From the UHGV virus genome UHGV-1732480: a stretch of DNA of 21,195 nt. One strand, written 5' to 3'. Below are positions 2,266-2,608 of the stretch, one piece after another. The notes under the pieces are model-generated. The model had not been told where the DNA came from and searched no databases. It saw only the letters and a list, made by a program, of their open reading frames with translations. The DNA is from a virus. How positions within the stretch are numbered: position 1 is the stretch's first letter; each line of letters opens with the position of its first letter. The position numbers were made by a program, and so were the translations under genes.

Positions 2266-2371
2266 ACAGCCTTCCCCTGAATAAATTAACCGCCACTTGC
2301 CATTCCGTACAGAAGTCGGATATCCTTCGCCCGAAAAGCATGAAACACATTTCTGCCATGCTAAAGAGAAA

Positions 2372-2404
2372 CCCCGGTATCAGCAGATACCGGGGTTTTC
2401 TTTC
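2372..2404. terminator. Strong hairpin (10-bp perfect stem CCCCGGTATC/GATACCGGGG, 4-nt loop) flanked by A-run and T-run; bidirectional intrinsic-terminator-like
   Basis: Read directly: stem 2372-2381 and 2386-2395, T-tract TTTTCTTTC 2396-2404, A-rich 2362-2371 upstream. Lies in the I-J intergenic insert. Confidence 0.45.
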
Positions 2405-2470
2405 ATGCCCACCGATAATCCTGTTGGTTAAAACCGGTAATGGCATAAAAATTCTGAATATCTTCACATT

Positions 2471-2498
2471 TTCACAAACTGACTGTGGCGCGTATAAT
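2471..2498 (+). promoter_or_regulatory. Candidate sigma70 promoter: -35 TTCACA (2471-2476), 16-bp spacer, -10 TATAAT (2493-2498), AT-rich upstream
   Basis: Sequence match to consensus (5/6 and 6/6). It points rightward, antisense to the tail genes. Confidence 0.35.
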
Positions 2499-2504
2499 TT
2501 CTCT

Positions 2505-2604
2505 GCGTTAATTTTTTTGTCGTGATATAAGAATAATTCCTTACACTTAATCTTCGTAACTCTCCCGCAGTTCCTGTCCGCGATCACTGCGGGATTTTTT
2601 TATT
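2505..2604 (+). ncRNA. Candidate ~100-nt non-coding RNA bracketed by the promoter above and an intrinsic terminator (stem 2563-2570/2587-2594, T-tract 2595-2604)
   Basis: Promoter and terminator geometry on the plus strand; no ORF beyond a few codons inside. Terminator: TCCCGCAG...CTGCGGGA followed by TTTTTTTATT. Hypothetical; no known homolog recognised. Confidence 0.25.
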
Positions 2605-2608
2605 CTTT

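Follow-up and report, generated by a model that had tools for sequence, protein, structure and literature searches.

We report that the spacer between tail genes I and J of virus genome UHGV-1732480 contains a putative moron cassette with a small RNA gene of the PasB family. The analyzed DNA, referred to below as the window, is 21,195 nucleotides long, and the cassette occupies its positions 2442–2608. With a probability of about 0.8, the gene is transcribed by host σ70 RNA polymerase into an Hfq-dependent, trans-acting sRNA; we infer the expression of the allele found in the window, designated W, from its homolog in enteropathogenic Escherichia coli (EPEC) E2348/69. The kind of element is known, as PasB was first described in 2021 and its distribution was surveyed in 2026; the copy in the window is a divergent, common, and unannotated allele of it.

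The cassette is embedded in a tail operon of the lambda type encoded on the minus strand. The tail assembly gene I (2609–3289, minus strand) is located upstream of J in the operon and matches the Pfam family Lambda_tail_I with 60.8 bits. The 5′ part of the tail tip gene J (1–2266, minus strand) runs off the left end of the window, encodes the Pfam domains FNIII-A_GpJ, Phage-tail_3, and Ig_J, and begins with the N-terminal sequence MGKGGGK common to its relatives. The stop codon of I at 2609–2611 and the start codon of J at 2264–2266 (reverse complement CAT, minus strand) delimit a spacer of 342 nt (2267–2608), compared to 60 nt in phage lambda. The first-pass annotation had noted the length of the spacer relative to lambda and described it as an insert of ~340 bp. 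The additional DNA is present, and Pfam supports the identity of both flanking genes; however, the spacer is composite, with the PasB cassette covering only about 2442–2608 and a variant J leader making up the remainder. Most phage records align only to positions 2442–2638 of the window, which correspond to the cassette and the end of gene I, and the homology boundary is at ~2442 in most of the phage matches. The cassette has its own promoter and terminator, is positioned between genes of a conserved operon, and is missing in syntenic relatives including lambda, which are the properties of a phage moron.

The promoter of the cassette is of the σ70 type and located on the plus strand. It is composed of a −35 hexamer TTCACA (2471–2476), a 16-bp spacer, and a −10 hexamer TATAAT (2493–2498), and agrees with the consensus at 11 out of 12 positions. 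No other site on either strand of the 21-kb window reaches at least 11 matches, and simulations give a chance expectation for promoters with 11 matches of ~0.14 per window and ~0.002 per 342-nt spacer. An identical promoter precedes PasB in E2348/69, and the −35 hexamer is not conserved in the subgroup of Stx phages. Upstream of the −35 hexamer lies a block with the sequence TTCTGAAwwTCTTCACATT (2450–2471, plus strand) that does not change among 17 distinct promoter variants, including those with an altered −35 hexamer. The block includes the motif TCTGA-N6-TCACA, which differs by one mismatch from the CRP core and is centered at −44.5 from the predicted transcription start. The motif is a low-confidence candidate for a CRP-like activator site and serves as a lead only: sites of this quality occur by chance 0.68 times per window, so that the match alone is not significant, and the spacing of −44.5 is off the canonical class II CRP position. 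The invariant block might tie PasB expression to cAMP-CRP.

The predicted RNA of the W allele extends from 2505 to 2601 on the plus strand, as delineated by a covariance-model match and alignments, and its 5′ end is placed by prediction. The RNA starts with a conserved GCGUUA (2505–2510) and a run of seven uridines (2512–2518), and continues with an AAN tract AAGAAUAAU (2529–2537), the segment AAUUCCUU (2535–2542), and AAUCUUC (2549–2555). The terminator is formed by a 9-bp stem, in which positions 2563–2571 pair with 2586–2594 and the core is CCCGCAG/CUGCGGG, and by a U7 tail (2595–2601), with 7 nt separating the tail from the stop codon of I. An inner alternative stem at 2577–2593 called by the terminator scan is not conserved among relatives. 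The near-consensus promoter, the intrinsic terminator with a stem at 2563–2594 just before the end of I, and the ~60 nt of ORF-free sequence separating them had all been read from the DNA in the first-pass annotation, and our analysis reproduces them; the ORF-free stretch measures ~64 nt. Within the predicted transcript, the search for a small protein yielded no ORF of at least 20 amino acids, which excludes a coding function. A 77-residue “tail fiber protein” ORF that is annotated over the spacer of phage vB_EcoS-569R3 has no open counterpart in the window.

The first-pass proposal of a plus-strand RNA of ~100 nt agrees with the 97 nt (2505–2601) predicted from the promoter, but a 5′ end equivalent to that of E2348/69 PasB would be at ~2518 and shorten the RNA to ~84 nt. 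The 5′ end of E2348/69 PasB was derived from RNA-seq coverage and the size of the northern band (PMC8550237). It corresponds to the last uridine of the 5′ U-run, 22 nt past the −10 hexamer instead of the expected ~7 nt. Either the RNA is processed within the U-run, or the 5′ end was under-covered or the predicted start is wrong. All variants retain the hexamer GCGTTA unchanged at the predicted start, which suggests that it is a part of the transcript.

PasB was identified as an 83-nt sRNA of prophage PP6 of EPEC E2348/69 (Pearl Mizrahi et al. 2021, PMC8550237). Its gene (NC_011601, 1466343–1466261, minus strand) lies between E2348C_1436 and E2348C_1437 and is antisense to both (PMC8550237). 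The two genes are homologs of gpI and gpJ, and the position and orientation of PasB within this lambdoid prophage are therefore the same as in the window. A covariance model built exclusively from six E2348-type PasB sequences has a single significant match in the window, at 2505–2601 on the plus strand, which covers model positions 1–98 with a score of 57.3 bits and an E-value of 5.9e-12. The homology to E2348/69 PasB extends over the whole length of the RNA, with a pairwise identity of 74%. Aligning the spacers of the window and E2348/69 reveals a shared promoter and terminator on either side of a diverged body. The reverse complement of the published northern probe agrees with window positions 2574–2596 in 20 of its 23 bases, which form one uninterrupted identical run within the 3′ half of the terminator hairpin. 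The Rfam covariance-model search suggested in the first-pass annotation did not identify any family: no Rfam 15 model, among which PasB is not represented, matched the window at its gathering score, and a permissive search of positions 2200–2700 with E-values up to 10 returned only noise, the best score being 19.6 bits against a threshold of 60. A full-text literature search with the terminator sequence retrieved no papers.

In E2348/69, PasB gives a northern band of the expected size, depends on Hfq, and is supported by RIL-seq (PMC8550237). The deletion of hfq changes its level by log2 fold changes of −6.8 and −2.4, and its baseMean values of 482 and 1082 compare to 5–15 for the flanking tail genes (PMC8550237), which indicates that PasB is expressed independently of the late operon in this strain. 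The RNA is more abundant in overnight LB cultures than in glucose-containing DMEM (PMC8550237). It has 37 RIL-seq partners, 30 of which are coding sequences or 5′UTRs, and takes the second position in nearly every chimera (RNA2 fractions of 1.0 and 0.99); partners from the accessory genome account for only 0.5–2% of its chimeric fragments (PMC8550237). The detection of an 83-nt RNA from the homologous locus on northern blots supports the earlier idea that the window contains a self-contained sRNA gene, or moron, antisense to the tail operon. The Hfq-CRAC table for O157 Sakai (Tree et al. 2014) contains no peak at the PasB-2 gene of prophage Sp12, under conditions that resembled those with low PasB. 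Two Sakai Hfq peaks considered as PasB candidates, EcOnc54 and EcOnc33, are located elsewhere, and Sakai prophage Sp6 is devoid of a J gene.

The conservation pattern of the RNA was derived from 12 distinct variants. The 5′ GCG(UUA), the U-run, the motifs AAyUCCyU and AAUCUU, both arms of the terminator stem with the CCCGCAG/CUGCGGG core, and the U7 tail are invariant. The terminator loop, which is 10 to 16 nt long and occurs in several sequences, and the segments between the conserved motifs are variable. RNAalifold predicts the terminator stem only, with the remaining RNA unstructured. No covariation was detected in the 12 variants for the terminator or for any 5′ structure; since the seven pairs of the terminator are invariant, the alignment provides no covariation evidence for or against it. 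A run of two to five ARN triplets, differing in sequence, directly precedes UCCUU in all 12 alleles compared, and reads AAG-AAU-AAU in W and AGU-AAC-AAA-AAC-AAC in the E2348/69 allele. The shuffle P value of the tract is 0.0005 for the E2348/69 allele and ~0.04 for W, which has only three AAN triplets.

Class II Hfq-binding sRNAs such as ChiX and MgrR, reportedly described by Schu and colleagues in 2015, combine an extended U-tail behind the terminator with an AAN tract and a seed in single-stranded RNA. The W allele has a Rho-independent terminator with a U-tail longer than six residues and AAN repeats in its presumably single-stranded body, and has the appearance of a trans-acting Hfq sRNA of class II. 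It resembles ChiX and MgrR in the long U-tail and in the ARN/AAN tract upstream of a single-stranded seed; it differs from them in the shortness of the tract, and the binding of PasB to the distal face of Hfq is a prediction.

We scanned viral contigs with the terminator sequence and, together with phage records, collected 31 distinct versions of the RNA. The W allele is the commonest in the viral-contig sample. The E allele comprises E2348/69 PasB and its C27A variant, which is the PasB-2 of Zhu et al. In addition, there are a shorter form (L087), forms from Stx phages (phage 1717 and BP-4795) that differ in the −35 hexamer and terminator loop, and recombinant-looking forms (L066, L124, and L046). 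The W and E alleles are 74% identical overall and 63–67% identical in the body 5′ of the terminator. Among 5426 complete E. coli genomes, W is present in 800 and E in 956, and neither is ever annotated; strains IAI39 and SK1144 are W carriers with 100% identity. The unit is antisense within the I–J spacer at every one of ~125 loci examined.

The distribution of PasB was surveyed by Zhu, Shabalina and Storz (2026), who searched with the 83-nt sequence of E2348/69 at a word size of 28 and describe the PasB variants as differing by “a few nucleotides” (bioRxiv 10.64898/2026.05.13.724894). The longest exact match between W and E within the 83-nt RNA is 25 nt, which is below the word size, and the W allele was therefore probably missed. 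We deduce this from the methods of the survey, the only one of PasB distribution, rather than from any statement in it. With a body identity of 63–67%, W is a divergent allele and not a near-identical, catalogued variant.

Several individual loci are of interest. Prophage Sp12 of O157:H7 Sakai (L136 12631–12728; NC_002695.2 2217630–2217727, plus strand) contains unannotated PasB-2 in an I–J spacer of 341 nt that also includes the long J leader. A 3408-bp contig filed as Streptomyces flavalbus (NZ_JBHTEB010000006.1, L124) includes an E. coli-type segment with I, PasB, the long J leader, and J, which is almost certainly a contamination of that assembly; its PasB resembles a W/E recombinant. In L001 (3067–3411), the RefSeq locus tags omit RS07360 between gpJ and the tail assembly gene, precisely at the spacer, and the skipped tag may be a trace of a withdrawn gene call.

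The J-proximal part of the spacer (2267–2441) is a long, non-coding variant of the J leader. It is found in 1446 of the 5426 E. coli genomes, is nearly invariant (at least 99% identity in 1441 of 1451 records), and is never annotated. No conserved ORF was found in it. The leader assorts independently of the PasB allele, being paired with either W or E, and its place in E2348/69 and most Stx phages is taken by shorter, unrelated J leaders. The long leader contains a strong hairpin (2363–2404), the core of which is a perfect 10-bp stem (2372–2381/2386–2395) extended by A/U pairs, with z-scores of −6.1 on the plus and −5.1 on the minus strand. On either strand, the stem is preceded by A-rich and followed by U-rich sequence. 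The separate, A/T-flanked 10-bp hairpin at 2372–2404 reported previously is confirmed, and its z-scores show it to be very stable.

All J leaders hold a GC-rich hairpin just behind the PasB promoter. In the short leaders, the hairpin is followed by a U-run on the late-operon strand only; it is called as a sense-strand terminator by the scan of E2348/69, and its variants include one compensatory change from C–G to U–A with an intermediate. The 60-nt spacer of lambda contains the hairpin GAAACCGCC-UGCG-GGCGGUUUU followed by GUCAUUU. As lambda and E2348/69 share a sense-strand hairpin at the I–J junction, the 2363–2404 hairpin is best read as a local version of an ancestral I–J element, a positional counterpart of the lambda hairpin outside the PasB cassette. 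Judged by this arrangement, PasB appears to be inserted between the stop codon of I and the ancestral hairpin. The GC-rich stem, U-run on the minus strand, and conserved position of the 2363–2404 hairpin are those of an intrinsic terminator in the late-operon sense, with predicted activity. Hairpins of the late operon may stop transcription that is not antiterminated or stabilize the 3′ ends of mRNAs. Having terminator features on either strand, the hairpin in the window could in addition protect the PasB promoter against transcription leaving J. At the threshold of our scan, no minus-strand promoter able to use the J-proximal terminator was detected.

Further hairpins are present along the minus strand of the window. 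On the late-operon strand, the strong hairpin is immediately succeeded by a weaker one, AGCAUG…CAUGCU followed by UUUUC (2337–2362), so that the long J leader contains a tandem pair of terminator-like structures in the sense orientation. Strong sense-strand terminator-like hairpins are also located right after the ORF resembling a major capsid protein (hairpin 10858–10878, ORF 10886–11914) and right after the ORF 11972–12319 (hairpin 11943–11964). They belong to the same class of late-operon hairpins as that upstream of J.

Other loci also point to insertions. In the window, a promoter-like TTGTCA-16-TAAAAT (18060–18087, plus strand, 10 of 12 matches) lies in a region poor in ORFs that separates the small terminase gene from Rz, with a 61-residue ORF downstream (18389–18574, plus strand); the region 18060–18574 resembles a further moron on the opposite strand. 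Tail genes L and K of Sakai Sp6 are separated by an inserted regulator and antirepressor pair (L133 1054–2709), with the Hfq peak EcOnc54 between the two inserted genes, and I is truncated and J replaced by espX7. Insertions thus occur at several junctions of the tail block.

We propose the following mode of action of the W allele, in which initiation and termination are modeled on the homolog and the later steps on motifs of the RNA. In a lysogen, host σ70 RNA polymerase would start transcription at ~2505 from TTCACA-16-TATAAT and stop at the CCCGCAG/CUGCGGG hairpin with its U7 tail, producing a primary RNA of 97 nt that is possibly trimmed within the 5′ U-run to ~84 nt. Hfq would bind the U-tail and hairpin by its proximal face and the AAN tract by its distal face, as is typical of class II. 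Pairing with mRNAs would then be left to the conserved UCCUU and AAUCUUC motifs in single-stranded RNA. UCCUU is complementary to the Shine–Dalgarno core AAGGA, and the blocking of ribosome binding would therefore be the simplest mode of action. Because the W body differs from the E2348/69 allele at about a third of positions, the set of W targets may differ as well.

The placement of PasB also allows for a role in cis, in which the RNA would mainly regulate the late tail mRNA, either by pairing with the I–J junction or by convergent collision of transcription, and thereby set the expression of J or silence leaky tail expression in the lysogen. The RNA is by construction fully complementary to the late transcript, it retains the antisense I–J placement at all of the loci examined, and PasA and PasC are likewise antisense to their neighbors. 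However, at least 98% of the chimeric fragments of E2348/69 PasB involve core-genome RNAs, no entries for E2348C_1436 or E2348C_1437 are among the listed rows of the interaction table, the tail genes to be silenced are nearly silent in the lysogen (baseMean 5–15), and the anatomy of the RNA is that of a trans-acting Hfq sRNA. We thus consider it unlikely that PasB functions mainly in cis. As the E2348/69 partners are almost all from the core genome, antisense action on the I–J junction would be at best secondary to regulation in trans; the two are compatible, and a cis-antisense role is possible in lytic growth.

It has also been suggested that the insert is a transcriptional insulator. In this case, its hairpins would block stray transcription from both sides, and any short RNA would be a functionless by-product. 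Two terminator-like hairpins are indeed present within 240 nt, the J-proximal one has terminator features on both strands, and the sense-strand hairpin at the I–J junction is ancestral, being found in lambda, while others follow head genes. This idea is applicable to the older J-proximal hairpin but not to the promoter–terminator unit, as lambda already has a hairpin at the I–J junction. An insulator would have no need of a near-consensus promoter, an AAN tract, and single-stranded motifs, yet these are kept across diverged alleles, and the homolog is an abundant RNA that binds Hfq and interacts with many partners, which makes a solely insulating function very improbable. Consensus scans by themselves are no evidence of function, and the promoter and terminator could in principle be chance matches flanking an untranscribed W allele. 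We find this scarcely credible given the ~0.002 promoter matches of such quality expected in the spacer, the use of the same promoter by a validated RNA in E2348/69, and the conservation of the promoter and terminator across alleles whose bodies are ~35% different.

The putative PasB of the window shares with its E2348/69 homolog the antisense gpI–gpJ site, promoter, terminator arms, U7 tail, and the AAN–UCCUU–AUCUUC layout. It differs in the J-side flank, which is a different and longer module, and in that the expression and Hfq dependence of W are predicted. PasA, PasC, PasD, AgvB, AsxR, Esr41, and DicF are similarly short, Hfq-associated morons of lambdoid prophages, often convergent or antisense to late genes, that are produced during lysogeny and target RNAs of the core genome. 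PasB has no sequence relationship to AgvB, AsxR, Esr41, and DicF, all of which are in Rfam and none of which match the window. Other lambdoid sRNA genes are located near Q, lysis genes, or the stx region, whereas PasB is inside the block of tail genes.

The moron concept is said to originate from the comparison of phages HK97 and HK022 by Juhala and colleagues in 2000. The genes lom and bor are morons of lambda. As they do, PasB forms an autonomous promoter–gene–terminator unit between conserved late-operon genes and is absent in syntenic relatives; in contrast to them, it yields an RNA instead of a protein and is oriented against the operon. The OOP RNA of lambda is an antisense RNA that acts in cis on the cII mRNA through RNase III. 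Like OOP, PasB is a small phage-encoded RNA that has a promoter and terminator of its own and is antisense to the 3′ end of a phage gene, but the PasB data point to Hfq-dependent action in trans.

We tentatively extend these results to a broader hypothesis, which we regard as speculative and more probably wrong than right. PasB may exist as at least two common alleles, W and E, and additional Stx-phage forms, and the differing seed contexts of the alleles could enable different prophages to impose different Hfq regulons on their hosts. Expression of the sRNA would be confined to lysogeny, with a possible link to cAMP-CRP, and the sRNA would be occluded and titrated upon induction. If this is true, the antisense placement in a Q-antiterminated late operon restricts the sRNA to lysogeny: upon induction, head-on late transcription would occlude the PasB promoter, and the abundant late mRNA, as a perfect complement of ~100 nt, would titrate PasB and free its host targets.

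Apart from this hypothesis, the cassette in the window confirms a known kind of element and implies no new mechanism. A PasB-type unit is present in a prophage tail operon of about a third of complete E. coli genomes (800 with W and 956 with E). If the W allele has not been counted, the PasB family is roughly twice as common and far more variable than reported. A covariance model such as that presented here could label PasB loci in genome annotation. The W and E alleles, in which the Hfq-binding parts are kept and the surroundings of the seeds differ, represent a natural experiment on the rewiring of host post-transcriptional control by prophages.
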